NCBI RefSeq assembly: GCF_002113885.1
Contig: NW_018405533.1
Location: forward strand, 136,313-200,312
DNA length: 64,000 bases
Source: Mizuhopecten yessoensis
Lineage: Eukaryota
Direction of reading: 5' to 3'
Part shown: positions 3,174-59,566 of the stretch, piece after piece
Layout of the letters: each line of letters starts with the position of its first letter
Numbering within the stretch: position 1 is the first letter of the stretch
Made by a program: the position numbers and the translations under genes
The notes under the pieces: model-generated
What the model was told of the DNA's origin: nothing
Database searches by the model: none
Seen by the model: the letters and a program-made list of their open reading frames with translations, nothing else

Positions 3174-3530
3174 TAAGCATTTACTTGAATATATTTCTCA
3201 TGATAAGGAGATATAACACAAAAACCCAGAGTGTACTCTAAATAAACCGCGAAGCGGTTTATGATGAGAGTACACTCAGGTATTTTTGTGTTATAGCTCC
3301 ATAACATGAAAAATATATTCAAGTTAATCCTTATAATTTAATCTACTTAACACAATCCTTGTGGAAATCTACTTTTATTGATGGACTCTTTTCTCTTAGA
3401 AATTATTGCACTGCTGTATCAGCCAATCAAAAGCGACGTTACAAACGGCGACGTCATTTATTTTACGCTATGGGGTGATAACATAAATGTTTAAGCCAAT
3501 GAAAATGCTTGTTAAGATTAAATTAAAGCT
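3174..3530. mobile_element. Palindromic non-autonomous element (~160-bp hairpin 3174-3333 plus 3' extension)
   Basis: Arms acttgaatatatttctcatg...acacaaaaa...gagtgtactct and agagtacactc...tttttgtgt...catgaaaaatatattcaagt flank aaaccgc-gaa-gcggttt. The right boundary is approximate. Confidence 0.65.
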
Positions 3531-5906: not shown

Positions 5907-7380
5907 TTGAGGTATTACAAAACAAGGCAGTAGGAATTAAAAAGTAGTTATAAGTAGAGAGAAATAATAAGATCCCAACCATTACAATTAGTGCAGCAGA
6001 TATATTTTGGTCGCTTTTGTGTCCTCAAGTATAGGGCACAAAAGCGAATCCCCAATTCTGCAGGGGATTCCCACATTAGTCGCCTCTTACGATACAAGCA
6101 GGTGTATTCTTTCCTCGATCCCCGACCTGTAGGGGTGAAAAAACATAGGACTTTATATCTTACGAAATAGGAAACATTGCGGCCTAACCATTATATCTTA
6201 GAAAACGTTGATCAATTATTGACGTCATAGACAATTGTACGGTATGACTTATATGAGATAATAAAAATTACCATATTGATTTATAAATAGACTTTATATA
6301 GGTTTTTGTTGTTCAAGTAATACCGCAGCAGGGTCTCAATACAGCAGGACAAAATATCATCTCCAACTCGACAGGAATAGACAACCCGCCATGATATCTC
6401 CAGTTTCAATTTCTAGGAAATATAAAGTGTCCCGTTTCTTTTCTGAGCTTTCGAATAGGCACATATATTCTCCTAGGTAACTAACCCCTTTCCCAGATCG
6501 TTCAGACGAAACGTTAATGCGTATTTTCAAAAGTCGATTACCATTATCTTAGCGTTAAGGATGTATTAAGAAAACGCTTTTCTCTAATTCCATGTCTTTT
6601 ATCGTGGCGTTATTTTGTTTGTTACTATTTGCACAATGGGGGAAAAGGTTAAAGATTGGTTCCTGGCGGTTTTGGTAATATTTCACTGTCTAAAAATCAA
6701 CTGTTATGGTGGTTTACCACGAACGAATCAGTTTTAAACTTTCTTTAAATAGCAACAGTAAAGGAAAAGCCATATATAAATGCTAAAATAACACAAAATA
6801 ATTACAGATTCAATCTAACAGCTATTTGTTTTCATTATATTTACCATCAGTTTAACAAAAACGTGAAACGGATGGTCGTGTATATCATCGGCATACCGAT
6901 CGAGACAAGTTTAAATGAAAATTAAAAGTTTGAAAGATAAACGTTAGACTCAAACACAGGTTGGTGATTGATAGATTTTGCCAAAAATAAACTACACTTC
7001 CCCAGCTGTTTCGTCCTTCTAGAACTTATCTGTGGTGCTGGGGACTAAGCCAGAGAAAAATCAACAGAACCCTTGTTTAGAATCACTGTCACAACAACGC
7101 AATATCTGGCAGTCTCCTTTGCCTGTGGTATTACCATGTAATACAACGTCTGTAAAATTCAGACTAGTCAAATTGTTTGGTAGTATTTAAGTAATAGAAA
7201 TGGAAAATATAGAAAGAATTGCAATGATAAAGGTTCGTGGTTCACGTAAACGTGAGCCATTACGATAATATTACCGGGTATACAACATACTAGTATATGA
7301 AGCAATAACAAGCAGTTGATTTACGCAATATAACTTTTTTTAATGGTATTACATTATGTAACAATGATGTAATGAATAAA

Positions 7381-7540
7381 CAATAATAATAATGATAATA
7401 ATTTGAGGTTCTTATATACCGCTTTATCACAACCTAGTCCGTAGGTCGTCTCACAGCGATTCACAAAATATTATCCGTGGTTTTAGGGCCTTTGCAATCA
7501 GACAATATCTTTCGCAACTCCCCGGGGAGCATACTGAATA
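7381..7540 (-). mobile_element. SINE 3' body and tail (same tail as the SINE at 27551)
   Basis: The reverse complement gtatgctccccggggagttgcgaaagatattg...gataaagcggtatataagaacctcaaattattat aligns to 27756-27875 joined to 34396-34430. Confidence 0.8.
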
Positions 7541-7706
7541 ACAAAGTGGGTGACAACACGGCGATTTCACAGGTGAGGTACCCATCTAATTACTGCCAAG
7601 TTTACTGCAAATTACAAACAGGGGCATGCTGTTTGATGTCCTGAAACCCTGTCGTCAGATGGTACAAAACCGATTTTCCCCTACACACCTCCCTCTCCCT
7701 TCCGCT

Positions 7707-8037
7707 CAGGTATCGGTTTGAGGTCAGTGATAGGACGCTTGTCCAATAACATTGACCTATCGTTGAGAGTTGACATATACTGGAGCTACAGGTATCGGTG
7801 TGAGGTCAGTGATAGGACGCTAGCCCAATAACATTGGCCTATCGTTGAAGGTTGACATATACTGGAGCTACAGGTATCGGTGTGAGGTCAGTGATAGGAC
7901 GCTTGTCCAATAACAGTGACCTATCGTTGAAGGTTGACATATACTGGAGCTACAGGTATCGGTGTGAGGTCAGTGATAGGAAGCTTGTCCAATAACATTG
8001 ACCTATCGTTGAGGGTTGACCTATACTGGAGCTACAG
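7707..8037. repeat. 82-bp tandem repeat, 4 copies
   Basis: caggtatcgg starts at 7707, 7789, 7871 and 7953, with a partial copy at 8035. Confidence 0.95.
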
Positions 8038-8556: not shown

Positions 8557-9456
8557 GAGAATAAACAATTGGCAAAGCAGTAGGATATTGACGAGAATAT
8601 ACAATTGGCAAAGCAGTAGGATATTGACGAGAATATACAATTGGGAAAGCAGGAGGATATTGACGAGAATATACAATTGGGAAAGCAGGAGGATATTGAC
8701 GAGAATATACAATTGGGAAAGCAGGAGGATATTGACGAGAATATACAATTGGGAAAGCAGGAGGATATTGACGAGAATATACAATTGGGAAAGCAGGAGG
8801 ATATTGACGAGAATATACAATTGGGAAAGCAGGAGGATATTGACGAGAATATACAATTGGGAAAGCAGGAGGATATTGACGAGAATATACAATTGGGAAA
8901 GCAGGAGGATATTGACGAGAATATACAATTGGGAAAGCAGTAGGATATTGACGAGACTATACAATTGGCAAAGCAGCAGGATACTGACGAGAATATACCA
9001 TTGGCAAAGCAGTAGGATATTGCCGAGACTATACAATTGGGAAAGCAGTAGGATATTGACGAGACTATACAATTGGCAAAGCAGCAGGATACTGACGAGA
9101 ATATACCATTGGCAAAGCAGTAGGATATTGCCGAGACTATACAATTGGGAAAGCAGTAGGATATTGACGAGACTATACAATTGACAAAGCAGTAGGATAC
9201 TGACGAGAATATACAATTAGCAAAGCAGTAGGATAGTGACGAGAATATACAATTAGCAAAGCAGTAGGATATTGACGAGACTATACAATTGGGAAAGGAG
9301 GAGGATATTGACGAGAATAAACAATTGGCAAAGCAGTAGGATATTGACGAGAATATACAATTGGGAAAGCAGTAGGATATTGACGAGACTATACAATTGG
9401 GAAAGCAGTAGGATATTGACGAGAATAAACAATTGGCAAAGCAGTAGGATATTGAC
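8557..9456. repeat. 36-bp minisatellite, ~25 copies
   Basis: Unit attgacgagaatatacaattgg(g/c)aaagcag(g/t)aggat. It explains the four overlapping 12-aa-periodic ORFs. Confidence 0.97.
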
Positions 9457-27550: not shown

Positions 27551-27875
27551 GGAGGCACGGCAGCCTAGTGGTAGGATGCCGGGCTCGTGACTGAAGGGTT
27601 GCGTGTTCGAGTCACGGAACGGCACTGTGTTGTATCTTTGAGCAAGATACTTTACTCAGCTTGTTCCAGTCTACTCAGCTGTAAATGAGTACGGGGTTGG
27701 GGAGAGCTAGAATGGTTGAATGCTAGCTATTAGTGCCGAATTGGCAGCTCCGGCTGTATGCTCCCCAGGGAGTTGAGAAAGATATTGACTGGTTGCAAAG
27801 GCCTTATAACCACGGATAATAATTTGTGAACCACTTTGAGACGACCTGCGAACTTGGTTGTGATCAAGCGGTATA
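27551..27875 (+). mobile_element. tRNA-derived CORE-type SINE, 5' portion (split by the Polinton)
   Basis: A box cagcctagtgg, B box gtgttcgagtc, CORE-like tgtatctttgagcaagatactttac...ctcagctgtaaatgagtac and an L2-like tail that breaks at gcggtata. Confidence 0.85.
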
Positions 27876-28096
27876 TGATGAATAGGATATTTATAGTAAA
27901 CCCCTCCCTGACGGGATGGATCAGTGAGGGACCAGTGAGGGATGAGGGACTGACCCCATGACCTTTCATAGGAATTCATAGGAATTCCCTCTCAAAATAG
28001 ATTGAATACCCCATAGGGAACATTGAGGGACGAGGTATTACCTTACGTCAAGTCTATTTTTAGTGCAACTGGTTATAGCATGTAGACATATATTCG

Positions 28097-28993
28097 CTGG
28101 ATGCTTTATGGGATGTGGATCTTGCTGATGTATCCAACCTAGGAAAAGAAAACGATGGGATGCGTTATCTTTTCATCGCCATTGACGTGTTTTCACGCCA
28201 CTTATGAGTAGTTCCTCTTAAAGGCAAGCTTCACAACACAATCATCGATCGATTCAAAAAGATTTTGAACCAGGGCAGAAAACCTAGAGAAGTGAGATCG
28301 GATCCAGGAAGTGAATGGGGGAATAGATGGGTGAAGCAATATTTAGATAAAGAAGGGGTGCATGTATGAACCATTACGTCACTCATAACGCTACGCATGT
28401 AAATTATGCCAAAAGGGTGATCAGAACATTGAAAACACTCATCTACCGCTATTTCACGCACACCAGGTCCTATCATTACTTGGATGTTTTGCAAGATACG
28501 TCCGGAATTACAATGCAAGGCCTCACAGTACACTTGATGGAAAATCTCCAGACGAAATCAATACGTCAAACCAAGAACTCGTATGGAAACATTTGAACGT
28601 AGATCACAAGAAGGCTAGAACTCCAAAGTAAAAGAAATTCTCAAAATCTTTCAAGTTTAAAATAGGAGATGTGGTACGGATACCTAGTAACAGACGCACG
28701 TTTCAACGAGATTATGGACAGAAATGGACAGAATGTTCACCATTAAAGCGCGATACCTTCGACAAGGTATACCCGTTTACAAAATCGTGGACTACGACGG
28801 AGATCTGATAGCAGGGATGTTTTATAATAGTGAGCTACAAAAGGTCGGAAAGGGAAGAGACGACCTGTTTAAGGTGGAAAAGGTATTGAAACGACGCAAG
28901 AGAAATGGAATTAAGGAAGTCTACGTGAAATAGCTCGGTTACCCGAAAAAAATTAACAGCTGGATAGAAGAAAGCGACATCCAAGACCTATAA
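28097..28993 (+). pseudogene. Polinton retroviral-like (rve) integrase with C-terminal chromodomain, disrupted
   Basis: WDVDLADV..MRYLFIAIDVFSRHL*VVPLK..RSDPGSEW..YAKRVIRTLK (catalytic Glu replaced by Lys), then FKVEKVLKRRKRNGIKEVYVK*LGYPKKINSWI. Contains stops and frameshifts. Confidence 0.92.
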
Positions 28994-29199
28994 AAAGGAC
29001 ACCATATAAAAGTTGTCTTCATTTCCTTTTTAACAGTTTCTCACCAAGAGATGTTCTCTTAAAACACATGAAAACCATTCACGGGGCAGTCAACCATATC
29101 TGCAAATCACTCATGCCGTATCCGCCGCCGCAGGAGGTACAGTTGTTGCTTTTATCGCAGGGATTAAAGTCACCGCCGCCACCGTCGCCACAACTGCAG

Positions 29200-30532
29200 C
29201 ATCGGGACTTTGTTTTTAAACATCCCTTCACAGCTAACGTGTCTGGTCCTACTTCCTGTGGGAAAAGTACTTTGTCAAAACTATGCTACAAAATTGTTTG
29301 ACAAAAATAACACCAGGTCCTCAAAGAATCATATGGCTCTACAAACGATGGCAACCTCTATATGACGTCATCAAAGTATACCCATCAGTTGAATTTATAC
29401 AGGGGATACCCCTCGACCTAGATCAAGATTCTTTCATTAATCCGAGTGTTAGAAACCTTATCATACTGAACGACCTAATGTCCATAGCATCTAAGGATCC
29501 ACGAGTTGTTTACGGAGGGGAGCCACCACAGAAACCTATCCGTCATCGCCAAATCAAAATCTTTATTATAATAAGGATCCTACTCTAAGACGAAATTGTC
29601 ACTATTTAGTGATGTTTAATAACCCCGTGGATAAGCAGCAAATCATGACGTTGGCCCGGCAAATGTATCCAGAGAATACAAAGCACTTAATGAGACAATT
29701 CAGTGAAGCTACAGACAAACCATACGGATATTTACTGGTGGATCTGAAACCCACTACCCCTGAATCTCTACGTCTGCGCCGTAATGTTTTCCCGGAAAAG
29801 CATATAAAAGGACCCATGCATGTTACTTCGATTCATTCTGAGGATAACACTCCTACCGTGCAGACGTATTCAGGAGTCTCTGAAGAAGATTCGTATTTAG
29901 CTGCTGTAGTAGAAGAGTCACAGATCAATATGATCAGCTGTGAAGATTGTGGTGTTGTCTTCAAAAACTTGCATGATCTCCAGAAACACATTAAGAATTG
30001 GTGTCCCGATCAATCTTCATTGAAGAGGAAAATGTCTGAGGAAGATTCTTTACATGACAAAAAGATTAAATTAGAGAAAATGATCTCGGAAGACAGCGAC
30101 ACGTCGCCTGAGTCATATGATGACTATGACGATGACGTATTCACGCAGTTTGCAGAAATAGCCAGAGTGAAAAACGAAGAACAATGGTAAATTAGTGAAA
30201 TATGAGAATCAAGGAATCTCACATGAGGCTAAATCGAAGGCTGACATAAAACTTAAGGACGAGGACCTTAAATAATTCCTAGGTTACTATGGAAAACTGC
30301 TGTCCTATTTATTGCAGTTAAGACACGGTAGATTACACGGAGAGGTTATAGATTCCATTGAAAACTGCATGGCTGATGGCATGGATAGTGAAAAGGCCAT
30401 TCGAGTAATAAAGGCTATTTGGATTCCATCAAAGACACTGATGACGAGGAGAGTTTTAATACTGATTCCGAGGGATCGGACAATGAGGAAGATTATGAAA
30501 TGGATGAAGACGATGGTGAGGCTGAGGATTAG
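29200..30532 (+). pseudogene. Polinton A32/FtsK-like packaging ATPase running into a zinc-finger/acidic ORF, disrupted
   Basis: FKHPFTANVSGPTSCGKS (Walker A), LIILNDLM (Walker B, D->N), LFTEGSHHRNLSV, PYGYLLVDL, then CEDC-x12-H-x4-C, KRK and an acidic tail. Several frameshifts. Confidence 0.88.
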
Positions 30533-30967
30533 ATTAAATTTTCAGCCCGAAAGTTTTGATTGAGTTAATTGTATATACAAAAATATGATTGAAAATAATT
30601 AAGAACACGTGTAAATAGTTCCTGTGGTAAATAAAACTTTTATGCATATCTAGTACCATATAGAACAAGGGGTGTTTATTTTAAAAGTAATTTACAAAAT
30701 ATATACGGACAATGATACAGATGTACATTAGAACATTTCCTACTTTCATGCATATATACTATCATATCATAGAACAAGAGGTGCTTATTTTAAACGTAAT
30801 GAACATATCTTATACTATTTACAACCATGAAGCAAAATTAGCATTAATTAACATACATACTTTGTGAAAATAAATAGACACACGAATATATCTATATAGT
30901 TGTACAAACGATAACATCATAAAAGGTAAGATTTTGTTCTTTCATGTCAAATGTATGAAATGGTTCA

Positions 30968-32760
30968 TCACTGTGAAGTTTTATAATGACCATAAGCCAA
31001 ACTCTCTATTCCAGTGAAATACCGTGTGTCGTCGTAAGGAGACAGACTGGTCTTGTTGACCGTTATACTGTAGAGTATGTGATCAAAACTACGTATAAGA
31101 TTCATTTAATGTTTGCAATTGCTTTCTTCAAAAAGACATAGTAAGTACGTTTGGTGTCTCAATTGCTTTTGAATAACAGATTTCTTCACTCCCTTGTCTG
31201 TACGTTTACTACACCCCCACACGCCAGACTATACATTTTGGGGGTTAATTCAACGAACTGATCCATGATGCGACCATTATTACACTCGTCTTTCATTTTA
31301 CCGAGGACTTTGCAATTGTTCATGCTGAACATAGAACTGTCTTTTGGGAAATTGCTTGTTTCAAACAGGTCAGCGTTGTCTTGCATGTCTCTGTACCAGT
31401 CAGGTGTTTCTATACTGTATGCGAGGGAGTCCATGTCAGTGAATAATAATTCTGCTTTTGATCCATACTTTTGTTTGATGAAATCATAATTGAACTGATA
31501 CATGAATATTTTCGATACCTCTAGAATACAGAACCCTGCATAAATAGACCAATTTAAAACAATGTTTGTTTTCTTCATGTTGACGGCGACCCTTTGTTAA
31601 AAAATTTGAAAGACTTAAAATTTGGTTTAGCACACACTTTTCTTAATCGTTTTGGTGTATTGACAAGTTCCACTGAAACTGGCTTTTTCATGTTTTCTAT
31701 TGTTTTGCCAAATACATAGTTGTTTATAAGTTTGAAAAAGTCCTTCTCGAATCTGTTTCGTGCTTCTTTTCTTTTGAATGTATTAAAGTCAATGTAAGGC
31801 TTCAGCCAAGCGGATTGGGTAAATTCAATAACACGCAGAATTTTCGTAAATATCATACCTTTAGAAAGGTAGTATTTTAAATTCCGGTAATGGAGAACAT
31901 ATTGCTGCTTGGAGCAGAGATTTGGAACAAGTTTTCCGGAAGGTTTACTTTTGATATTCAACTTCTCACGAAGCTTTAGAGAATGTGGAGAGAGCATGTC
32001 CTTTGTTATGCTGATGTTCTCGGGTGCTAGGGGATATTCGTTGTGCTTGTCGTGCAAATGAATCGGATATTCAAGGTCAACTTCCAAAATGTAGCCCGTG
32101 TCCGCATTGTCGTCAATATTAGATACGTCAAACTGTGCGATTTGTTCTGCTGTCAACCATGCACAGTCCTTTTCCGGTAGGGATTCAGACATGCTTGTAC
32201 CATATAGGTTATTCATGTAAAGGTACGTGAGCCAAGTGTTTGGTTTGGACGGATCGCATTCCGGCGACTTGGGATTATTAGCCTGTGCAAATTTCTTTGA
32301 AATCATTGCCACACCACCTCGAATACCCTTTTCAAACATCAGTACCATGTCGTGTTCATAGTCTGTTTCGGATAGATCTGAATCTATCAGTTTATTATAA
32401 AACCGATCCTTTCCGGGCAATTCATTTCCGTCAAACGTTTCGGGTGATGTCACGTAATCGTACGGAAACACTCCCTTCCTAAGAAGAACTTTGAGATGTT
32501 GCTTTTTTGGGAAGCGCTTTGACAAGTTTGGGAATTTATCTATTCCTTCGACTGCTAAATTTGACACCAGTTTGTCAAGCGGTGCATTTAGAAATTATAA
32601 GGAATCTATGAATCTCAGATTCCCAAGGGAGAATAACGTATTTTTCCATATGGCTTGGTATACAAGACAAGGGTTTCGATTTAAATTTCCCCGCCGATTC
32701 CATCAACAAATGCATATCATAACCACGCAAGTTATGAAATACCACGGGGATGTAAAAAAG
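30968..32760 (-). pseudogene. Polinton protein-primed family B DNA polymerase (pPolB), 5'-truncated and disrupted
   Basis: PVVFHNLRGYD (ExoII), LLRKGVFPYDY, GIRGG, YLYMNNLYG (motif A, D->Y), KLINNYVFGK (motif B), FTDMDS (motif C), SLSPYDD..LAYGHY. ORFs 31575-32567 and 31186-31578 are pieces of it. Confidence 0.95.
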
Positions 32761-32789
32761 CGAGTGTGTATGTACATACGTCTACACAT

Positions 32790-34157
32790 CTGGAAAGTTA
32801 AAACTTTAACTGCATCCTAAACTATATTTTGATGAATCTCAATTATTAATGTTTCTAATCATAAACACCTAGGTTTGTTTTTCAACAGCAAGGCTAATTG
32901 GTATAACCACAGAAACTATTTATACGAAAAAGCTTATAAAAGAATTAATATACTTAGAATGTTGAAATACAAAATTGATAGAAAATCACTCGAAACTATA
33001 TATATCACATTTATACGTCCAATTCTGGAATATGCAAATATTATCTGGACAAACTGCACGCAGAATGAATGCAGTGTCTTGGAGTCTATCCAACTAGAAG
33101 CAACACGTATTATTTCAGGATTAAGACGTGGAACAAGTCATGCTATCTTATATAGAGAATCTGGTTTTATAACACTTAATAGAAGAAGACATTTGCATCA
33201 AAATATTACTTTTTATAAAATATATAATAGGAAAGTTCCCTCTCATGTCTATGATATAATTCAACCGTACATTAATGATAATACTGGCAATTATCATCTT
33301 CGCCTCAATAGAATTTTTGATGTTCCTATACCAAGAACTCAGTTATATAATGCCAGTTTTTTCCCGAAACTGATGTCTGAATGGAATAATCCAACCTGCC
33401 TGTATCCCACAATGACATCCATTGGATCTATAAAAAGAATTTTTTTACACTCAGAGAAAATGGATTCTCAACCCCAATGTACTGATATTTTTAAATACAA
33501 TGGTGATCGAAAATTTAATATTACCTTACGTCAAGTTAGAAACTGTGCCAGTAACCTGAATTCAGATCTATTTGAATCTCACCTAATTGATACCCCTGCC
33601 TGCTTATGTAGTTCTCCTGTTGAGGATTGTGATGACTTATTCTTACATTGAACTCTGTGTACTAATCAAATGCAAATTCTCCTAAACTCCATTTCTGCTC
33701 TTAATGACATTATTCCATTAAATACTCAGACTTTTCTTTATGTATGTCGAAGGCTCGATATCAATATGAATATAAGTATCTTGGAGATAGTTCAGAGATT
33801 CGTTAAAGATACAAGACGCTTTAACTACATTACACTTACTTGTTTATCTTTTTTCACGTGACTTTGCTGTAGGGAATGATTCCAGTACATAATTGTACTA
33901 TGTGCTGTCCACCAGCATATTTTCAATTGCCTTTTTTTGTAAAATCTAGTTTTTGTACAACCATTACCAAAAAAATAAAATAATGACATGCAAATATTAA
34001 TATTAATGTACATAATATACATGTTTTATCATTACTTCAATTCAATATGATGTGTGTAAACTGTTTATAACTGTAAGGAGAGGGCGCTCATAGGGTTTGC
34101 CTGTTGACCAATTCCTTTGTATCTAAGATCTGAACAATAACTATTCTGAAATGAAAC
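32790..34157 (+). mobile_element. 5'-truncated CR1/L2-group LINE (ORF2 C-terminus plus 3' UTR) nested in the Polinton
   Basis: HKHLGLFF..W..H, IYITFIRPILEYANIIW, LESIQLEATRIISG, C-terminal CLC motif and FVKDTRRF (ORFs 32875-33651 and 33670-33861). Tail gagggc...caataactattctgaaatgaaa. Confidence 0.92.
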
Positions 34158-34395
34158 TGATAACGCTTTTGTAAGTAAAGGCGTCTAATATACACAAATT
34201 GGGAAAACCCACACCGGGCTTAAAATAACTTCGATACAGCAATATAGAAGCGGACCTAACCGGTTTCTCTGAAAATAGACTTGACGCAAGGCAGTCACTC
34301 GTCCCTTACTGATCCATCCCGTCAGGGAGGAATTTATTATAAATATAGAGGGAGGGATAAAGTGGCGTAGAACTCTCATTTCCTATGCATCATCA

Positions 34396-34440
34396 GATAT
34401 ATAAAAACCTCGAATTATTATTATTATCATCATTATTATC
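34396..34440 (+). mobile_element. 3' tail of the SINE that starts at 27551
   Basis: gatatataaaaacctcgaattattattattatc matches the uninterrupted tail ggtatataagaacctcaaattattatc of the copy at 7381-7420 (minus strand). Confidence 0.85.
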
Positions 34441-35273
34441 ATATATTACACCTTTATATCAAAAATGAAAGATAACAATATTGTATAGGAGAGACGAAGT
34501 CAATGATACACCACTGATGTTACAGTGGCGGACCCAGAGGATATTATTGGGTTTCAGCAAACAACCAAAAATCTTGTTCGTTTTTCTCAATTTCCTAATT
34601 GGAATAACCTTTCCAAGGAAAATTTGAATCCCCTCCCTCACGATTGGCGTTTGAATCTACCACTATACCGTATTGGGATTTATAATGCAGTTTTAGTGAA
34701 GACTGAATTTACCAATATCTGGCTTTATAATGAAAATGATTTTTTGTTATATCGTTAAGATATCATTGTAATATTTTTATCATATATGTGTAATGTAATT
34801 CATGTCTTTGAATTCTCTCCACATTGTATTTTGTATCATGTAGACCCATATCCTAAAGCACTAATACTAATTTAGTCATGATGATTGGTCGTTTCACACA
34901 CTGTCGTACAATGTAGTAAACCGAACGATTTGTTTTCCAAATGTCGGTAAAGTTAGGCTTCATATACTTTCTATAGCATGTGTCGTTATACAAAAGTTGA
35001 AAAAGATATATCAAAGTAAACCCGCAATAAAAGTTAATTAAAGAGAGGAATTGCGGAAACACAGAGCAAATGAGAGCAGGTATTCCGGAAGTGAAAGTGT
35101 TAAAAAATATAATTAACACTTCATAAAGAATGAAGACCGCTGTCGTGGTGAAATGATGTTATCAGAATGCCAATTACTGCATATGAAACATAACGGTGAT
35201 TTCTCAGGACGGCCGTTTGTTGATATAATTGTAACGGTGATTTCTGAACGGAAAGTGGAAATCAGTACCTTAT

Positions 35274-38399: not shown

Positions 38400-38880
38400 T
38401 GACTCATGGTCACATGATTGTTTAGTCATCAGCTAGTGGGGACTTCCAATCCGATATACATATCAAAGCTTTTAAATTTCACGGATAATAGTAATGATTA
38501 GTCAAATTTAGATTACAATGATACGATGGCCGACAAGAGCCTGGCAAAAAGATGTGAATTTTCATATCTTTTTGTACCATGGTACTTTTTTTTATATGGT
38601 ACACAAAGATATTAAAATTCAAATCTTTGTGTACCATGTAAAAGTGTACCATGGTACAAAAGATATGAAAGTTCTCTCTTGTCGGCCATCGTACAATGAT
38701 CTGATGACACACACACATAAGGACATTACTGATAACTGGCCAGAACCAGTCATAGCAAGGCTGAGCCTGCCAGCACAAATATAGATCACACTGGAAAACC
38801 CCAGAACATTTTGATAGTGTCTATATTTAGAATCCGTGTATATATAAACACGACACTCTGTAACTACTACCAACATTTCC
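38400..38880 (+). promoter_or_regulatory. Candidate promoter for the IAP gene (AP-1, two kB-like sites, TATA)
   Basis: TGACTCA 38400-38406, GGGGACTTCC 38438-38447, GGAAAACCCC 38793-38802, TATAAA 38843-38848. The acceptor at 42723 implies an upstream exon. Motif match only. Confidence 0.3.
38522..38693. mobile_element. Foldback MITE (TA-flanked)
   Basis: Perfect 18-bp inverted ends tacgatggccgacaagag / ctcttgtcggccatcgta. The interior is also largely palindromic. Confidence 0.85.
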
Positions 38881-39180: not shown

Positions 39181-40725
39181 TTTTTAGGTCACACGAGCTT
39201 TGCGCAAGTGACCTATTCTGATCGCTTTCCGTCCGTCGTCGTCCGTGGTGCGTAGTGCGTAATTTTTTTACATTTTCAACTTCTTCTCAAGAACCAGTGA
39301 GTGGAATTTTTTCAAACTTGGTCAAAATCATCCTTGGTAGATGAGGCAACAAAATTGTAAAATTAGGATACCTACCCCAACCCCTGGGGCCAGGTCGGAG
39401 CCCCAAAGGGAAAATTTACAAATATTTCAAAAATCTTCTTTTCCAGACTCAGAGGTACTACAGCCATTTTCTCTGCATGGAAGGAAAAACCATCAGGGGC
39501 TTTATTTGAATTGTAAACTTCAGGACCCTCGATCTATCCGTTCTCTCTTGGGGAGGGGGTAAAGTTTACTATAGTTTATATAGGGAAATAGCACTTTTGG
39601 GTATATTTTGACAATTTTCTGAAGAAATTATTCTTATTTAGTGAGAATCATCCTTGAAGAAAGATGGTTTTGAAATTGTAAAATTGGGATTCTACCCCAA
39701 CCCTAGAGGCCAGGGCGGGGCCACAAAGGGATAATTAACCATTTTTTCAAAACATTTTCTCTCCAGATTCAAAGGTACTACAGTCAATTTCAGTGCTTGG
39801 ACAGAAAGATCATCAGGAACTTTATTTGAATTGTAAACTTCAGGACCCTCGAGCTATCCGTTCTCTCTTGGGGAGGGGGTAAAATTTACTATAGTTTATA
39901 TAGGGAAATAGCACTTTTGGGTATATTTTGACAATTTTCTGTAGAAATTATTCTTATTTAGTGAGAATCATCCTTGGAGAAAGATGGTTTTCAAATTGTA
40001 AAATTGGGATTCTACCCCAACCCTAGAGGCCAGGGCGAGGCCACAAAGGGATAATTAACCAATTGTTCAAAACATTTTCTCTCCAGACTCAAAGGTACTA
40101 CAGTCATTTTCAGTGCTTGGACAGAAAGATCATCCGGAACTTTATTTGAATTGTCAATTTCAGGACCCTCGAGCTATCCGTTCTCTCTTGGGGAGGGCGT
40201 AAAATTTACTATAGTTTATTTAGGGAAATAGCACTTTTGGGTATATTTTGACAATTTTCTGTAGAAATTATTCTTATTTAGTGAGAATCATCCTTGGAGA
40301 AAGATGGTTTTCAAATTGTAAAATATGGATTCTACCCCAACCCTAGAGGCCAGGGCGGGGCCCCAAAGGGAGAATTAACCATTTTTTCAAAAGAAATCCT
40401 TTCCAGAATCAGAAGGACAACAGTCAAGTTCAATGCTTGGATAGAAAGATCATCAGGAGCGTTATTGAAATTGTCAATTTCAGGACCCCCAAGCCATTCT
40501 TTCCGCCTTAGGGAGGGGGTAAAGTTAACCATAGTTTATATAGGGAAATAACACTTTTGAGTATATTTTATCCATTTTCAGCAAAAAATTACTCAAACTT
40601 GGTCAGAATCATCTTTGGTCAATGAGGGTATTACATTGTAAAATTGGGATTCCTGCTTTATCCCCAGGGGCTAGGGTGGGGCCCTAAAGGGAATATTTAT
40701 CAATATTTTAAAATTCTTATCCTTT
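39181..40725 (+). mobile_element. Non-autonomous Helentron/HINE-like element with ~320-bp internal tandem array (~4.3 copies)
   Basis: Begins in a T-run with hairpin taggtcac...gtgaccta, then a (gtcc/gtc)n microsatellite, then units starting aatcatc at ~39326, 39646, 39966, 40286 and 40607. The 3' end was not seen. Confidence 0.8.
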
Positions 40726-41475: not shown

Positions 41476-41892
41476 ATATAACCATATTGAACCATTTTAC
41501 ATCGGTATTATTTCAGCTATATAATAATGCCAGTGTACAGTGAAGTCTTTACCAATAAAACATTGAGAGTAGGTACCCATATACAATAGATGAGTGATAT
41601 TATATAACGTTGTTGTATATGCAATAATATTATATAGATTTCATAAGTAAAACCGACAGTATGATCCAATTATTGACACTTGATCCTAACAAACAAATAT
41701 TGGCTGGATACGTATTTCTTAAATATATATGAGCATTGAAACAATAACGAAAGTGCAGACAAAAGAATTTGCAGAATTCATCATAAGTGTTTCTGGATTG
41801 TACATGTATATATATGATAGAAATATCCAACCGAAGCGTATAGAATAATGGGCGAAAACCGAGGCTTGCCAAGGTTTTTGAACTCAAATTGT

Positions 41893-42440
41893 TTACCCGA
41901 GAGTAGGACATTTCTATCATACAAGAGTTATGTTATACCCGAGAGTAGGACATTTCTATCATACAATAGTTATGGTATACCCGAGAGTAGGATATTTCTA
42001 TTATACAATAGTATGTTATACCCGAGAGTAGGACATTTCTATCATACAATAGTTATGTTATTCCCGAGAGTAGGACATTCCTATCATACAATAGTTTTGT
42101 TATACCCGAGAGTAGGCCATTTCTATCATAAAATAGTTATGTTATACTCGAGAGTAGGACATTCCTATCATACAATAGTTATGGGATACCCGAGAGTAGG
42201 CCATTTCTATCATAAAATAGTATGTTATACCCGAGAGAAGGAAATTTCTATCATACAATAGGTATGTTATACCCGAGACTAGGACATTTCTATCATAAAA
42301 TAGTATGTTATCCCCGAGATTAGGACAATTCTATCATACAATAGTTTTGTTATCCCCGAGAGTAGGCCATTTCTATCATACAATAGGTATGTTATACCCG
42401 AGAGTAGGACATTTCTATCATACAATAGTTATACCTGAGT
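41893..42440. repeat. 40-42-bp minisatellite, ~13 copies, within a palindromic element
   Basis: Unit ttatacccgagagtaggacatttctatcatacaatagttatg. An inverted copy tatgatagaaatatccaac lies at 41813 across the centre aaaaccgaggcttgccaaggtttt. Confidence 0.92.
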
Positions 42441-42863: not shown

Positions 42864-45141
42864 ATGTATGACAAGGAAACGCAACTAGAACAACACCAGG
42901 CTGAACACGTTTCAAGTCCAGAAGATACAGCTCCTTCGGACGAGACACAGACAGTAGAATCACGTGATCAAAGTGGCAGAGGAAACATGTATAATACAAA
43001 TCATGATTCTATTAGTCATACTAGGACCAACGAAACGTCGACTGGAACACTAGAGACAGTCCCACCGAAGTATCAGCAGTTCTCTGTACTCGCCACCCGT
43101 CTTAACTCATATAGACACTGGCCAAAGCATCTCAAACAACGTCCCGAGGACTTGGCAAAAGCTGGTCTCTTTTATGAAGGTAAGGATAATATCGGAAACC
43201 TTGAACTGTGCACTTCAATGTAAAAACCATCGAATATATAGTTAATTATCAATTCCTTTTGGATCGATAACTCACACTGACCCTATTATTATGCATTTCT
43301 AAGTGATAAATTATATATTCCAAAGTCTGTGAAGTTAAGAAATAATGTTAATAGGCAGCTCTGATCTTTTGATTTCCAATATTGTTACTGATTTTTCTTT
43401 TTGTCTTGACACACAGGAAAAAACGACTACGTAAGATGCTTCCACTGCGCAGGGGGAATGCGTGAATGGGACCCGGAAGATGAACCTTTTTATGAGCATG
43501 CGCGGTGGTTCCCTTTTTGTCCATTCATGAAACTGATCAAGGGCGACAAGTACATAATGGGTGTCCAGTCAGGAACAATCCAACCACCTGATGTACAGGT
43601 GAATATATAGACATTAACGGTTGTACCAATTTATACCAAAGCTGTTTCAAATAGTTATATCAGCTTAACGCAATGCGATTCATGTCTTTACAATGTAATA
43701 AGAAGGCAAATAAAACAACATATTCAAATGAACATACATATATTTACATTCAAATTAATTATATCACGAACATATATTTCTAGCAAGCTTCAATTCTAAA
43801 GGCTGTTTCAGAAATAAGCAAGAATCGCGTGTAAATTAGGGGTTCTTATAGTTCAGAATATTGTTAAGTTCTCTGCATCCGATATATTAGAACTTGATTT
43901 ATTTTGAACGATGTCTAAATTCTAGCTTGCTGGTTTAGAGAACAATTAATGAATGTTTGATAAAAAAAAAAAAAAAATTCAAAGCTGTAGTGCATACTTG
44001 TCAAATAGAGTTCTTATTACTCATTATGTTATTTTGTTTGTAGCGCGATGAGTCCAGACAAGAGATCGATATGTTTGAACATCCAGCTGTACTCAGCGTC
44101 ATGGAACTGGGCTTCAGTAAAGACATTCTGACAAAGGTCATTACAGTGTACAGGAAACGTCACGGTATGTATACCTTCTGTACAACTATTTATGTCAATA
44201 CTGGTGTTAACTAAATAGTTATTATTCTCATTTGTATTTTCAATATCATGTAAATAAAATGTAATAATTTGATATTTTAACCTTAATATTTTAAATCAAA
44301 TACTTTAAACAAAATTATGTGATTTTTGAAAGAAAACATATCTGAATGTCAGTTTGAATAACACTTAATGCATATATTTCTTAAAACGAATTTTTGACCA
44401 TATATCTATTATCATTGGTTCACTTTACAGGCACGGATTTATGTGCTGAGAAGCTTTTGCATATCGTCTGGGAAATAGAAGAAAATTATGACATGGATGT
44501 CATCCCAGAAGACGACATTATAGAAACCAAACAGGCCAATCATAATCAAGAGGAAAGGGAATGTGAAAGAACATGTGAAGATACGGAACTCACGAAGAAA
44601 GATGAAATTACGAAAACGAAAGGTAATGAAAAAAGATATAGAAATTTCATGAAAATATGCTTCAGGATTTTTCATGGAAAACTTAATGCTACGACTGTGT
44701 GAACAAATTATAATCTACAATACTAGAAATTCTACTCTTCACGTGGTTACGGACTATTGCATAGAACATCTGCGACCATAACCATACAGTTTACGTTTGG
44801 TAAATATATGAACACGGTCTCGGAACGATATCCAATTATATGGGACTATATGGAAGCCATCTCCATTTCGAATAAATGAAAATGGGAACTTTTACGAATT
44901 TGTAGTGATTGTTTCCTTAACTTAATGTTTTATTTGTTTTACAGGTATTGATGAGCTAACAGAGGAAAATCGAGAACTTCGTGAACAGAAGATATGTAAG
45001 GTGTGTCTCGACGAGGAGGCTAGTATTGTGTTCTTGCCTTGTGGACATTTGGTCACGTGCCCTATGTGTGCCTCGGCCTTACGGAAGTGTCCAGTTTGTC
45101 GGACTTACATCAGGGGCACGGTCAAGGCTATCATATCGTAA
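42864..45141 (+). CDS. Inhibitor of apoptosis protein (BIRC family), single BIR + UBA-like + C-terminal RING, ~335 aa
   Basis: Exons 42864-43179, 43417-43598, 44044-44164, 44431-44622 and 44945-45141, all GT-AG with compatible phases (1008 nt in total). BIR: RLNSYRHWP...[18 protein letters not shown]-x16-H-x6-C. UBA-like: [16 protein letters not shown]: [36 protein letters not shown]. The start codon is uncertain. Confidence 0.92.
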
Positions 45142-45772
45142 GCAAATGTGTACGACCGAACAACATTCAGCTCAAAAATTGCGCAAGCGAGCATTACCTA
45201 CAGCAAAATTGAACATGTGAGCAATACGAAACACATTCATCGTCAGATCGGAATGCAGATGATCACAGCTGACCTTGAATGTACCGTTACATGATATATT
45301 GCCGACTTGTTCATTATACTGGGCAATCATCACCCACTCACACTGTACAAAATCTGTATTTTTCAAAAGTTCATTTTCTGATATCCAAATTTTGTAAATC
45401 TTCCATGAGATCAACATTTTGTTGATACAACTACATTTCTGTTAGAGCTTTTCCATAATAAATCATGTGAAGGAGGCGAGTGGCACGTGTATTTAAACAC
45501 TATTGTTGTAGTGTTAAATCCGAAACTCCCTACCATTCCATATATTGAATCAGTTTCAGCATTTGATGATTGATAGACCTCTTGAGAATAGCCTCTCACC
45601 ACTCCCAAAGAGTATATCCTGAAACAGCCCTTAGTGAATCTTTGTTCAAAGAAAACCTATTTTTCTTTACCAAATACAGCTAGCAGACAATATGTCTTAA
45701 TATGATAGTTCTGATTAATATATAAATGTTAACATTTTCAGGAAACCAATCTTTTGTCTATCATACAATTTT

Positions 45773-45928
45773 ATTCAGCATTGTCAGTTAATTCAGCATT
45801 GTCGGTTCATTCAGCATCGTCGGTTCATTCAGCATCGTCAGTTTATTCAGCATTGTCAGTTCATTCAGCATTGTCAGTTTATTCAGCATTGTCAGTTTAT
45901 TCAGCATTGTCGTTTCATTCAGCATTGT
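45773..45928. repeat. 18-bp minisatellite, ~8.5 copies (repeated at 48843-48998)
   Basis: Unit attcagcattgtcagttt. Confidence 0.92.
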
Positions 45929-46271
45929 AGGTGCTCTTTTTGTGCAGAACTTAATTTTTTTTTTGTAATTTCTTTTATAAATTTATTTAAGATGAGATTT
46001 ATGCTTGTTAAAAAAATATATTTGAAAATGAATTAAAAACACATTACACTTGTTGTTTTCTTTCCTTATTGTCTTTACAATCTTATATTGTTTAATGTTT
46101 AAACCTACACTATTGATAACCATACATAGATCTCTACCATCCACACGAAGTCTCGTATATAATCTCTATATCTTTACATATTGGACAATGTGTAAAACAC
46201 AGTAACATGTTTCCTACACAATCTGTTACATCCACAGATCTCCGTCTCACACACATAACAGATATGCTCCC

Positions 46272-46642
46272 TCAACATTTAAGAAAGAAAATATCAAAAA
46301 GAAAAGTTGTTTTTATAAAGCATTGGTAGGAAGCAGCATTGACCGTTTCCGATGATGTGACTACTGTTGCTACAATAGGAGACACAGCTGATGCTGCGAT
46401 ATTTGCTGCAGCTGCACTTGGATCCCCTGCAGCAGCCGCTGTCTGTAGGGGAAGGGTACCATCTACACCCTGGGGCACCTCTCCTGTTGCTTGAGTGGGG
46501 AGAGTAAAGTTCATTGGGAGGTTAGGGAGGGGAGCAGGGGTTTGAATAGACATCGGCAGAGTAGCTCCCGGGGAAAACGCAGCACTTGGTGGTGCGGGAC
46601 TGCCCCTTCCTGGTGGTGACATTGTACTGCTGGTAGTCACAC
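46272..46642 (-). CDS. Duplicate of the Pro/Ala-rich terminal exon at 49342-49712 (within the probable artefactual duplication)
   Basis: Same sequence as 49342-49712, offset by 3070 bp. Cut by the N just upstream of its acceptor. Confidence 0.4.
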
Positions 46643-46649
46643 CTGCAGN

Positions 46650-49600
46650 CCAACCACCTGATGTACAGGTGAATATATAGACATTAACGGTTGTACCAAT
46701 TTATACCAAAGCTGTTTCAAATAGTTATATCAGCTTAACGCAATGCGATTCATGTCTTTACAATGTAATAAGAAGGCAAATAAAACAACATATTCAAATG
46801 AACATACATATATTTACATTCAAATTAATTATATCACGAACATATATTTCTAGCAAGCTTCAATTCTAAAGGCTGTTTCAGAAATAAGCAAGAATCGCGT
46901 GTAAATTAGGGGTTCTTATAGTTCAGAATATTGTTAAGTTCTCTGCATCCGATATATTAGAACTTGATTTATTTTGAACGATGTCTAAATTCTAGCTTGC
47001 TGGTTTAGAGAACAATTAATGAATGTTTGATAAAAAAAAAAAAAAAATTCAAAGCTGTAGTGCATACTTGTCAAATAGAGTTCTTATTACTCATTATGTT
47101 ATTTTGTTTGTAGCGCGATGAGTCCAGACAAGAGATCGATATGTTTGAACATCCAGCTGTACTCAGCGTCATGGAACTGGGCTTCAGTAAAGACATTCTG
47201 ACAAAGGTCATTACAGTGTACAGGAAACGTCACGGTATGTATACCTTCTGTACAACTATTTATGTCAATACTGGTGTTAACTAAATAGTTATTATTCTCA
47301 TTTGTATTTTCAATATCATGTAAATAAAATGTAATAATTTGATATTTTAACCTTAATATTTTAAATCAAATACTTTAAACAAAATTATGTGATTTTTGAA
47401 AGAAAACATATCTGAATGTCAGTTTGAATAACACTTAATGCATATATTTCTTAAAACGAATTTTTGACCATATATCTATTATCATTGGTTCACTTTACAG
47501 GCACGGATTTATGTGCTGAGAAGCTTTTGCATATCGTCTGGGAAATAGAAGAAAATTATGACATGGATGTCATCCCAGAAGACGACATTATAGAAACCAA
47601 ACAGGCCAATCATAATCAAGAGGAAAGGGAATGTGAAAGAACATGTGAAGATACGGAACTCACGAAGAAAGATGAAATTACGAAAACGAAAGGTAATGAA
47701 AAAAGATATAGAAATTTCATGAAAATATGCTTCAGGATTTTTCATGGAAAACTTAATGCTACGACTGTGTGAACAAATTATAATCTACAATACTAGAAAT
47801 TCTACTCTTCACGTGGTTACGGACTATTGCATAGAACATCTGCGACCATAACCATACAGTTTACGTTTGGTAAATATATGAACACGGTCTCGGAACGATA
47901 TCCAATTATATGGGACTATATGGAAGCCATCTCCATTTCGAATAAATGAAAATGGGAACTTTTACGAATTTGTAGTGATTGTTTCCTTAACTTAATGTTT
48001 TATTTGTTTTACAGGTATTGATGAGCTAACAGAGGAAAATCGAGAACTTCGTGAACAGAAGATATGTAAGGTGTGTCTCGACGAGGAGGCTAGTATTGTG
48101 TTCTTGCCTTGTGGACATTTGGTCACGTGCCCTATGTGTGCCTCGGCCTTACGGAAGTGTCCAGTTTGTCGGACTTACATCAGGGGCACGGTCAAGGCTA
48201 TCATATCGTAAGCAAATGTGTACGACCGAACAACATTCAGCTCAAAAATTGCGCAAGCGAGCATTACCTACAGCAAAATTGAACATGTGAGCAATACGAA
48301 ACACATTCATCGTCAGATCGGAATGCAGATGATCACAGCTGACCTTGAATGTACCGTTACATGATATATTGCCGACTTGTTCATTATACTGGGCAATCAT
48401 CACCCACTCACACTGTACAAAATCTGTATTTTTCAAAAGTTCATTTTCTGATATCCAAATTTTGTAAATCTTCCATGAGATCAACATTTTGTTGATACAA
48501 CTACATTTCTGTTAGAGCTTTTCCATAATAAATCATGTGAAGGAGGCGAGTGGCACGTGTATTTAAACACTATTGTTGTAGTGTTAAATCCGAAACTCCC
48601 TACCATTCCATATATTGAATCAGTTTCAGCATTTGATGATTGATAGACCTCTTGAGAATAGCCTCTCACCACTCCCAAAGAGTATATCCTGAAACAGCCC
48701 TTAGTGAATCTTTGTTCAAAGAAAACCTATTTTTCTTTACCAAATACAGCTAGCAGACAATATGTCTTAATATGATAGTTCTGATTAATATATAAATGTT
48801 AACATTTTCAGGAAACCAATCTTTTGTCTATCATACAATTTTATTCAGCATTGTCAGTTAATTCAGCATTGTCGGTTCATTCAGCATCGTCGGTTCATTC
48901 AGCATCGTCAGTTTATTCAGCATTGTCAGTTCATTCAGCATTGTCAGTTTATTCAGCATTGTCAGTTTATTCAGCATTGTCGTTTCATTCAGCATTGTAG
49001 GTGCTCTTTTTGTGCAGAACTTAATTTTTTTTTTGTAATTTCTTTTATAAATTTATTTAAGATGAGATTTATGCTTGTTAAAAAAATATATTTGAAAATG
49101 AATTAAAAACACATTACACTTGTTGTTTTCTTTCCTTATTGTCTTTACAATCTTATATTGTTTAATGTTTAAACCTACACTATTGATAACCATACATAGA
49201 TCTCTACCATCCACACGAAGTCTCGTATATAATCTCTATATCTTTACATATTGGACAATGTGTAAAACACAGTAACATGTTTCCTACACAATCTGTTACA
49301 TCCACAGATCTCCGTCTCACACACATAACAGATATGCTCCCTCAACATTTAAGAAAGAAAATATCAAAAAGAAAAGTTGTTTTTATAAAGCATTGGTAGG
49401 AAGCAGCATTGACCGTTTCCGATGATGTGACTACTGTTGCTACAATAGGAGACACAGCTGATGCTGCGATATTTGCTGCAGCTGCACTTGGATCCCCTGC
49501 AGCAGCCGCTGTCTGTAGGGGAAGGGTACCATCTACACCCTGGGGCACCTCTCCTGTTGCTTGAGTGGGGAGAGTAAAGTTCATTGGGAGGTTAGGGAGG

Positions 49601-49718
49601 GGAGCAGGGGTTTGAATAGACATCGGCAGAGTAGCTCCCGGGGAAAACGCAGCACTTGGTGGTGCGGGACTGCCCCTTCCTGGTGGTGACATTGTACTGC
49701 TGGTAGTCACACCTGCAG
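46650..49718 (+). repeat. Apparently identical copy of 43580-46648 (IAP exons 3-5 repeated); probable assembly artefact
   Basis: All ORFs recur at +3070 with identical translations. The copies are joined by a single N at 46649 and homopolymer lengths match. Confidence 0.9.
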
Positions 49719-54985: not shown

Positions 54986-57900
54986 TGTCGTGAATTTTGT
55001 ATGTGTTGTCACACACCTTCACAACATGTAGTTGAGAACTGCTCTCAGGTCCCAAAAACTATTAGAGTATGCGGAGGAAAATCACTCACGTGTGTTCTTG
55101 TTGAAGTCAGGATGTTCAATGTTGTCGGCGCGGTTATTAGTCTAATGGAGATAACTCTCCCCAAAATTCACCACACTCTTCCCCGTTTTATGAAGGCCTC
55201 CTCTTGAAGTTGGAAGCTGCTGATCAGGAATCATGGATGAGGTGGTCATTCTTGAGCATCAGATTTGGATCAGGTGTTGTTTGTGATGCTGGAGATGACT
55301 GTTCTCTGGTGGAGTTTGACAAGGTCGGGTCACTTCTTTAGCATAAGGGACCCCTATAAGGAACACAGTTTTACCGTGCCCTCGAGTGGAAGTCCTGTTG
55401 AAGGGCTTATCTTTACTGTGCCCTCCTCCAAGATACAGGACCATTAAGATATAAACTTTATGGTTGGGCATAGGCATACCGTGTCCCTGCCAGGTACTCA
55501 GACATAGTATTTGGATACTATGTCTGAAGTTTCAAAAGTGCAGGAACACCCTCCACTTGTATGCTTACTGTGACAGGACGTTGATAACACAATCCAATCC
55601 CTAATCAGATAACCGCTCAAGGGCCCGATCCCTCGCAGTTTCCGGAGACGGTTGAGAGGAAAACCCCTCTGTCTCTAGAGACCCGGAGGCTGCCTGCGAC
55701 GCAGAGAATCGTCTCTTTCTGAACTTCCGTATTGATAACTGACTTAAATAGAGCTTCTGCTTAAAAGCTGTCTCCAAACTGTACAATGTGATCCCATTTA
55801 CCTGGGTCACAAAAATACACAGGGATTTTTACTGTCCTTGCTCTTATTACTAGACATCAGAACACAACAGTGCCGTGAAATTTATCTGCTATGAAACTGT
55901 TGCCTAGTCACCCCAAATGCCAGTTCAGTCAACTTTTGGGGTGCTCTAGTCTAGATCTGCAGGACACCCATTGTGTTTCTATACTTGTTCTGTTGTTATC
56001 CCTGGGCTAACTTAAGTGCCTCATGTAACTCCTGGTCATCCAGTTCATCCTTGTCGTTATCTGATGAATCACATTTAGTTTGAAACATTTGCTGACGGAG
56101 GAACACAAGTTACCGTTACCTCTTCCCCGTCAAATGGAAATGAGTCAGATTTTGTTTTTCCCGCCTCACCTCCTTCAATTTTGAGCCCCACTGTTTGCGG
56201 TACATGTATATGTTTATTTTGTTTAGGACCAGGAGTACGGGCCTTGCTTGTCAACGGAACCATACTGTTCACGTCCTCTTCAAACCGTTCACAGTTAGCT
56301 TCCGCTGGACGACTGTTCAGTCGCTCTTCCTAGACCCTCACTAGCCTCTGGGGAGCTGAGGAATGACCTCTTTTGGCCCAGTAGCTATGATGTTCCCGGA
56401 GGTACTCTGGCCTTTTCCAGGAATTATGTCTGCTGTATAACAGCTCCGGGCTTCCCTGTGGAGATAAAATTTCACCTCTACATGTTATTTAACTTCAAAT
56501 TTCTGTCCTTCTGTCATTATGACGGACTTGGCAGTGTCATTCATCTCTCTCATGTGGAGTGTTGGGCACCGGGCGGCACTACCGAACCGGCAATCATGAC
56601 TCCCTTGGGATGTTGTGTGGGTTTAATCGTGGACATATCCCCATTAGGTCTAGCCCAGTCAACCGGACAGTGCCCTATAGTGTTTGGTGGTATTGTTACA
56701 TTTTGGGCTCACTTAACAGTGGACGATGTCATCTGCTCCTCCACCGGCGACGTTATAGGTATCATCAGATTACCAATAAACAGGACGCCTGCATCTAAGT
56801 CAATGACATATAGTTGTTCCTTGACAGGAAGTCCACCCCACACAACATGTTGGCCATCATGGAGGCATCACATACACATACGGTCCAATGTATTTTGGTA
56901 TTTCCTATTCCGATTTGTAAGTCTTTTATTTCCCATACTATCTCTAAATTGCTGGTACACACCCGGAGCCTCACTCGTTTCCCAAGCACTAGTGGCCCCT
57001 CGAGCCCATCCACCAGCTCCCGCTTAATTAGCGTCATCGTGGCCAATGTATCAACGACAGCCCGAATTGGAGTTCCATTTCAGGTTAGTGGTATGGTAAT
57101 ACTACTTCCATCTGAGACCGCAAGCTTCACCTCCGTCAAAATATGGAATCCTTTCTAGGCGCGGGGGATGGATACCTTGATCTGTCCGCCGTGTCTCTAA
57201 ATGGTTCCGGGGACGCAGATGGAGACCTCGGATGGAACGCCTGTATCTTCCGTCCTCTGTCGTTACCCCAACTGGCGGTACTGTTGTTGCCTCTCCCCGG
57301 TTTCCAGGGGTCCCGACTAGGTTGATCTTGACCTCGACCTGGTGACCATGTGCCAGGTGACTCCCTATGATATCCGTGTGACATGTTGCGGTTTCGCTGG
57401 GCACCTTGTCCTGAGTATGGGGACCGTATCTCGGCGTGGACCTTCATATCTATTACGCCCGTTGTCCTGGGGTGGACGAGGGTACTGAGCCCTAGCATGA
57501 TAATCTGGTGGTCGGTTCCCTTCATAGTTTTGAGGGGAACCTCGGTCGCGTTTTGGAGAACGGTAGTCTCCTCTACTTTGTCATCTCCCGACTTAGTGCC
57601 CTCAGCAAATTCCACCTGCCTACATGTACTAGGGTAACGTGGTGCGCGAGAACCAAACAGAGCACGCTGATTGGCCACGGAGGCCTTTTAGAGCTTTGTG
57701 AACCGTGTTAGGATTCCTCTTTATGGCTCTCTGCGCCGCCATCTTCTCGCAACAGCCTTTACGGAACGCATCTGGAGCGATCTGATTCCTGGTTGTGGTG
57801 TCGGAATGCGCAAAGCCATCTCCAATTATGGTTTGAATCCGATGGGCAAATTCTGCTAAGTTCTCAGTCTCCTCTTGTTTAGTGAAGTGCAGTTCTCTGC

Positions 57901-59040: not shown

Positions 59041-59566
59041 CTACTATATACCACCTACCGGCAGCATGCTAAATTCATTATCATTGGTTGTCAGTATGAG
59101 AAGAAGTTGAGAACGACTTGAGAAGAACTTAAGAAGAACTTGAGAACGGATTTTCCCATTCCCCAGCACTTGGGGACGCATTTTCTCAAAAAAGAACGAC
59201 TGATCGTGCCAGATAACGTCCGCAACTGGAAATAGTGTCTACACAAAAGGGATCCACGTGAGAAAATAGTTCGTCATAAACATATCAATACAAAGTTACG
59301 GAAACATAATGTGATAATAAAAACACCATTTCAGGTGTAAACGTGCTTATGGAAAACCCAATGACGATAGGATTGTTTAAAAAAAAAATCTACGTAGTTT
59401 TATGGTTCATTGTATTCCTCCGTGCAAAACTTCTATATGTTTATGTTTGTCACAGGTGATCGTTGACCATTGAGCTTAGAATTCATTTGAAAAACATGGT
59501 GTTTAGTTGAGTTTTTTGAATGAAGAAATATATAATTAAGGTAGTAGTATATAGATAATAACTAGT

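Follow-up and report, generated by a model that had tools for sequence, protein, structure and literature searches.

Polintons (Mavericks) are said to start with 5'-AG, a rule attributed to Kapitonov and Jurka. In vertebrates, they carry terminal inverted repeats (TIRs), a 6-bp target-site duplication (TSD), a terminal tandem repeat, an integrase, an ATPase and a DNA polymerase, and they end in (AGT)2, (AG)3 or (AC)3A (Barreat and Katzourakis 2021, PMC8097293). In molluscs, 2,559 pPolB1 and 39 pPolB2 integrase-linked polymerases have been counted (Jeong et al. 2023, PMC10748475), and adintovirus maps exist for Mytilus and Pinctada (Starrett et al. 2021, PMC8502044); the available sections of these two papers give no end sequences for such elements. 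Ends of the TG...CA type are found in Gypsy, Ginger, IS3 and IS481 elements, among them Ginger1, Ginger2/Tdd, IS3EU/GingerRoot and IS481EU, which have related DDE integrases; GingerRoot makes 6-bp TSDs, and Ginger has TGTNR ends, 4-bp TSDs and an HHCC finger (PMC2836005, PMC10045372). We describe here an element at positions 27876-34395 of a 64-kb stretch of AT-rich, animal-like DNA from the scallop Mizuhopecten yessoensis (contig NW_018405533.1, positions 136,313 to 200,312; the whole stretch is called the window below). From its coding remnants, we firmly assign this element to a bivalve lineage of Polintons/Mavericks, as a dead and internally deleted copy; unlike vertebrate Polintons, it ends in TGATGA...TCATCA and, unlike Ginger, GingerRoot and IS481EU elements, which have no polymerase or ATPase (PMC2836005, PMC10045372), it retains remnants of both.

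The element is a 6,520-bp insert that splits the tail of a short interspersed nuclear element (SINE). The 120 bp to its left (27756-27875) are 88% identical to positions 7534-7415, on the minus strand, and the 37 bp to its right (34398-34434) continue the same SINE copy at 7381-7534 with 86% identity (E=7e-7). Taking the uninterrupted SINE 3' part at 7380-7534 as the empty-site reference, we scored all cut-point pairs against it; the best match gives 6,526 bp for the element plus one duplication (score 114; next 112), the small margin being due to the TA repeat that forms the insertion site. The flank matches and the 6,526-bp offset bear out the borders that an initial annotation of the window had derived from the split SINE, and its coordinates and letters for the element agree with the sequence. 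The split SINE and the copy at 7381-7534 have only their 3' ~160 bp in common; with different upstream parts and one tail, 7380-7700 and 27550-27875 may be two SINE families. In the head of the split copy, A/B-box-like motifs (labels read from sequence) lie near 27560-27615, and ARAGORN and Rfam gave no match over its 5' part (27550-27869).

At the offset fixed by the SINE, we tested 165 partitions of start and TSD length. A perfect 6-base terminal inverted match, TGATGA...TCATCA, was obtained only for 27876-34395 with a 6-bp TSD, whose two copies (ggtata/gatata) match at 5 of 6 bases; when random inner ends were combined with the real flanks, a run of at least six bases arose in 4 of 20,000 trials. 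TGATGA...TCATCA with a 6-bp TSD is thus the best reading for the ends of this copy, in support of the TG...CA termini proposed earlier, with a terminal tandem repeat of (TGA)2 on the left and (TGA)2TG on the right. The runner-up partition, with 5-base GATGA ends and an 8-bp TSD, is ruled out by two TSD mismatches. Perfect duplications of tata (4 bp), tatat (5 bp) and ta (2 bp) also restore the SINE; the ends are then unequal, which rules out the TA- and tatat-duplication readings. No symmetric A-starting ends longer than two bases occur among these partitions, and we do not assign the copy to the A-ended AG, AGT or AC types. The accompanying remark that Polintons usually start with 5'-AG is right for vertebrates, where the AC type nevertheless also exists (PMC8097293).

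The two TIR arms align over a 52-base block (27887-27938/34295-34346, 90% identity) and a 59-base block (28017-28075/34257-34315, 80% identity); compared with the right arm, the left one is without 3 and 35 bases and has about 80 extra bases. At the very ends, TGATGA followed by a three-base gap and ATAGG on the left faces TGATGATGCATAGG on the right, and this 3-base difference can be read as the loss of TGC, or as the loss of TGA together with one substitution. It had been ascribed to slide-back during protein-primed initiation, with one triplet fewer on the left, an origin that we do not retain, because one TGC deletion suffices and because jumping-back, described as recovering terminal bases (PMC5175343), restores the ends rather than making them unequal; moreover, the gap does not remove a clean triplet, and other lesions of the left arm adjoin it. 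The unequal ends are most simply explained by the loss of TGC next to a 35-base deletion. An exact 18-base match links 28036-28053 in the left TIR to 33519-33536 in an open reading frame (ORF) resembling a long interspersed nuclear element (LINE) within the insert, and around it 4 of 5 nearby arm differences agree with the LINE-like ORF; no random 200-mer out of 300 matched over as many as 15 bases, and the 18-base match is possibly a trace of local templated repair.

As the initial annotation had recognized, the element is a Polinton, with an integrase, an ATPase, a polymerase, TIRs and a gene order in common with a pearl-oyster gene model (Pinctada FSP39_004278, hereafter P0271). Like Polintons, it combines a family B polymerase, a chromodomain integrase without HHCC finger (as judged from relatives), an ATPase, TIRs and a terminal tandem repeat. 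The integrase remnant is deprived of its first ~72 residues and has three frame changes, several stops and an altered third catalytic position. All 150 integrases found with that of a related locus, L009, map to 28.0-29.0 kb on the plus strand; PF00665 and PF00385 are carried by relatives, and none of the 150 has the N-terminal HHCC finger in its first 130 residues, the N-terminus of the present copy being itself deleted. Its integrase pieces are 48-69% identical to P0271; an 80-residue piece used as query found no homologues. The ATPase of another related locus, L020, is PF04665, and in P0271, too, a zinc-finger ORF stands after the ATPase.

The polymerase remnant has a ~75-residue internal deletion, three frame changes and stops, and its N-terminal ~600-685 residues are absent; its identity is 90% with a Mizuhopecten yessoensis protein, 82% with one of Argopecten irradians and ~70% with proteins of Pinctada and Saccostrea. 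Three relatives that were rescanned (P0040, P0065 and P0070) pass the PF03175 cut-off, and P0001 (Mizuhopecten LOC110442433) and P0002 (Argopecten) have no PF03175 match. The spacing of the polymerase motifs (158-162 residues from A to B, 98 from B to C) presumably reflects TPR-type insertions. The place of the first half of the polymerase is occupied by a LINE-like insert, not mentioned in the initial annotation, that makes up ~1.4 kb of the 6.5-kb element; any flanking duplication it has is at most 6 bases long, it shows no Pfam match and a weak RVT_1 lead (0.84), and we label 32790-34155 LINE-like mainly from its motifs.

Unlike vertebrate Polintons (PMC8097293), this 6.5-kb copy has no capsid and protease genes: six capsid and three protease candidates compared with the element gave no significant match (best E 0.05). 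An autonomous Polinton or adintovirus would have major and minor capsids, a maturation protease, a length of 13-25 kb and intact ORFs, none of which is found here. Pfam returned only weak zf-C2H2 and rve_3 matches on ten window fragments, phage records gave no match, and a PDB profile search gave zinc fingers throughout the best 60 of 119 matches. Integrase and polymerase converge in the window (28097-32763); in the related loci L002, L003 and L009, the core genes are all on one strand.

A polymerase tree of 40 rows (named hits, top 20 hits and stop-free loci), built on one unbroken 253-residue piece, midpoint-rooted and without reference Polintons, groups this polymerase with the Mizuhopecten and Argopecten proteins (support 100/99). 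Since P0271 has the same integrase-ATPase-zinc-finger order and a similar integrase, and since the polymerase groups with scallop proteins, both halves of the insert derive from one bivalve family. P0001, P0002 and P0271 are annotated as uncharacterised or hypothetical. A contig scan of genomes yielded 31 related loci, with 35-55% polymerase identity. Among these more distant loci, L009 is fuller, with an integrase-chromodomain, a protease-like ORF, an ATPase and a polymerase; L020 carries an integrase, a protease, an ATPase and a polymerase, together with a clear jelly-roll capsid that passes the Pfam cut-off; 440-residue ORFs of L002, L008 and L009 weakly resemble this capsid. L002, L003, L009, L020 and L021-L030 are Polinton-like contigs, with ORFs for integrase, ATPase and polymerase as well as capsid-like ones; they are filed under bacterial and archaeal metagenome-assembled genomes, into which eukaryotic or viral DNA has apparently been mis-binned. 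In L023, 12256-13488 and 19531-20746 form an inverted repeat of more than 1.2 kb, 97% identical, with an integrase ORF in each arm.

We consider that TGATGA...TCATCA with a 6-bp TSD is probably the motif of the whole family, and a lineage with TG...CA ends is plausible. A family motif is favoured because both ends agree on T/A and because an A in first position would break the triplet repeat, TGA-TGA being a perfect repeat and AGA-TGA not. The TSD is imperfect, with one mismatch, but at the 9.6% divergence of the arms 45% of 6-bp TSDs would be expected to carry a mismatch, and TSD mismatches also occur in catalogued fossil Mavericks (PMC8097293). Several observations weigh against a family-wide motif. 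The end motif rests on one degraded copy, whose left arm is rearranged directly behind it. The motif occurs in the window only at 27876 and 34395, and self-BLAST, TIR BLAST and tblastx detected no second TIR copy in the window. No credible paired ends were found in the 31 related loci by searching for self inverted repeats (31 loci), left/right comparison (10), a TIR-plus-TSD scan (22) and cross-locus comparison (8); most of these loci are cut off by a contig edge or by the limit of the 10-kb flank, and the TIRs of the window have no DNA match in any of the 31. The site can also be read as GTATAT, in which 4 bp, TATA, are perfectly duplicated. Finally, in the vertebrate table, where searches for listed words return 713 AGTAGT and 339 AGAGAG entries, single-end A-to-T changes are seen (TGAGAG, 3; TGTAGT, 3), and one AG-family fossil, without matching TSD, reads TGAGAG...CTCTCA at both ends (PMC8097293), so symmetric TG...CA ends can arise in single copies.

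This last case speaks for an ordinary A-starting family, both terminal bases of which would have changed in this copy or its immediate parent. The heavy mutation of the copy fits such an origin, as does the fact that all three published vertebrate motifs begin with A. Yet the precedent is one fossil among ~340 AG-type rows and may be mis-bounded, given its missing TSD; an AGA-TGA-TGA end would not be a perfect repeat, and the available vertebrate table contains no AGATGA (PMC8097293). With a chance of ~3e-4 for an independent change of both terminal bases at this divergence, we regard copy-specific ends as unlikely. The TATA duplication leads to another reading, which needs no TSD mismatch: a 4-bp TSD within RTATAY, with a right end that kept two extra bases (GA) after CA, comparable to a 3' dinucleotide left unprocessed, so that the ends would still be TG...CA-based and the integrase would act like that of Ginger2. 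GTATAT is an RTATAY site, the target that Ginger2 is reported to prefer (PMC2836005), and RTATAY occurs ~3.3 times per kb in the window. However, a Ginger2-type TSD fits only with the two extra bases, i.e., with an aberrant right end, and Polinton TSDs are 6 bp long (PMC8097293, PMC10045372). The ends are TGATG and not TGTNR, no HHCC finger is seen in the related integrases, and the sole HHCC-like match in P0271 (661-703) lies outside the integrase; we hold this reading to be unlikely, though worth retaining as a rival. That the TIRs are those of another, cut-and-paste transposon with TG...CA or TA...TA ends (a Ginger, an IS3EU/GingerRoot or a miniature inverted-repeat transposable element, MITE), which captured Polinton genes, is very improbable, even though TG...CA ends are typical of the Ginger and IS3EU/GingerRoot groups (PMC2836005, PMC10045372), the arms are short (~140 bp) and a TA duplication would give TATGATGA/TCTGATGA ends with one mismatch, for a second transposase was not found, all identified non-LINE coding content is of Polinton type in conserved order, a tandem triplet end is a Polinton trait, and TIRs of 46-1,447 bp have been reported, a range that includes 140 bp (PMC8097293).

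The locus records an integrase-type insertion into a SINE tail with a short duplication, followed by decay. Under the family-motif reading, a Polinton/Maverick of a bivalve family would have been inserted by its own rve integrase, which would have cut the target with a 6-base stagger and duplicated GGTATA; a G-to-A mutation would later have altered one of the two copies. The family would end in the triplet repeat 5'-TGATGA...TCATCA-3', on which a protein-primed polymerase may start at T, the repeat serving for jumping-back, and the integrase may join CA-3' ends in the manner of retroviral, Gypsy, Ginger and IS3-type enzymes. Once inserted, the copy would have shed its capsid/protease block, together with the beginning of the integrase and the first polymerase half, acquired a LINE-like piece and decayed. 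We infer the priming mode and CA recognition by analogy: terminal repeats let protein-primed polymerases start internally and move back, as in the adenovirus triplet jump, and a T start has a precedent in Bam35 (PMC5175343); the same priming role has been proposed for Maverick end motifs (PMC8097293). The complete scenario, an undescribed bivalve Polinton lineage with TGATGA...TCATCA ends, a T-start polymerase with triplet jump-back and an integrase joining CA-3', is put forward tentatively, as a possibility that we would not call probable.

The TG...CA triplet end looks like a new Polinton end type, since the published vertebrate catalogue has only A-starting motifs; TGATGA and TCATCA occur 0 times in its available table (PMC8097293). 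Literature searches, bearing also on the available parts of PMC11131425, PMC3014272, PMC12220804, PMC10175614, PMC10294476, PMC8547959, PMC8969392 and the preprint 10.64898/2026.07.28.741278, did not bring up any Polinton reported to have TG...CA ends, within a scope that did not extend to the founding papers, Repbase or Dfam, and the supplements of a curation guide hold no Polinton entry; curated libraries may well already contain such ends. The kin of Polinton integrases nearly all join CA-3', whereas described animal Polinton ends are CT-3' or GT-3', and how these ends serve both protein priming and integration has so far been inferred. If confirmed, a family with CA-3' and a triplet repeat would offer, next to A-ended families, a natural comparison of integrase end choice and processing, which could tell whether end motifs go with the integrase or with the polymerase; surveys seeded on AG/AGT motifs, such as PMC8097293, would miss TG...CA elements. 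The gain is moderate, as the group is abundant, its end motifs are known to vary, and the element itself is an unremarkable dead member of it. Its features are listed in Table 1.

Table 1. Features of the Polinton remnant and of its SINE target site (window positions)
Feature	Positions	Strand	Basis or remark
Host SINE, 5' part	27550..27869	+	tRNA-like head, then body; last 120 bp match 7534-7415
Left TSD, ggtata	27870..27875	+	same as uninterrupted SINE
Left TIR, starts TGATGA	27876..28075	+	arm comparison
rve integrase with C-terminal chromodomain, pseudogene	28097..28990	+	150/150 Polinton-type integrases map here
A32/FtsK-like packaging ATPase, pseudogene	29116..29800	+	ATPase ORFs of L002/L003/L008/L009/L012; P0271 residues 364-606
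C2H2 zinc-finger/acidic accessory ORF	29816..30190	+	PF00096 E=1e-4, below cut-off; P0271 position
Family B DNA polymerase, protein-primed type, 3' half, pseudogene	30971..32763	-	includes the longest minus-strand ORF; Argopecten P0002 residues 686-1359
5'-truncated LINE-like insert	32790..34155 (borders approximate)	+	ORF 32836-33651 and 3' UTR
Right TIR, ~139 bp, ends CATCATCA	34257..34395	-	arm comparison
Right TSD, gatata	34396..34401	+	1 mismatch
Split SINE, 3' tail	34402..34450	+	86% over 37 bases
Uninterrupted SINE, 3' part, empty-site reference	7380..7534	-	sequence match to both flanks

Elsewhere in the window, 43580-46648 and 46650-49718 form an exact 3,069-bp tandem duplication whose halves are separated by one N (46649); an artefact of overlap in the assembly is the most likely cause. 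GC-rich ORF remnants without Pfam match lie on the minus strand at 56000-58100, which we take to resemble the decayed gag region of a long terminal repeat retrotransposon. MITE-like palindromic inverted repeats are found at 61439-62039, 3174-3333, 38556-38674 and 59563-59731, and tandem arrays at 8557-9456 (36-bp period, with open frames on both strands), 39301-40718, 41888-42439 and 7707-8037. ARAGORN predicts a tRNA-Ser(AGA) at 22549-22622 on the minus strand.

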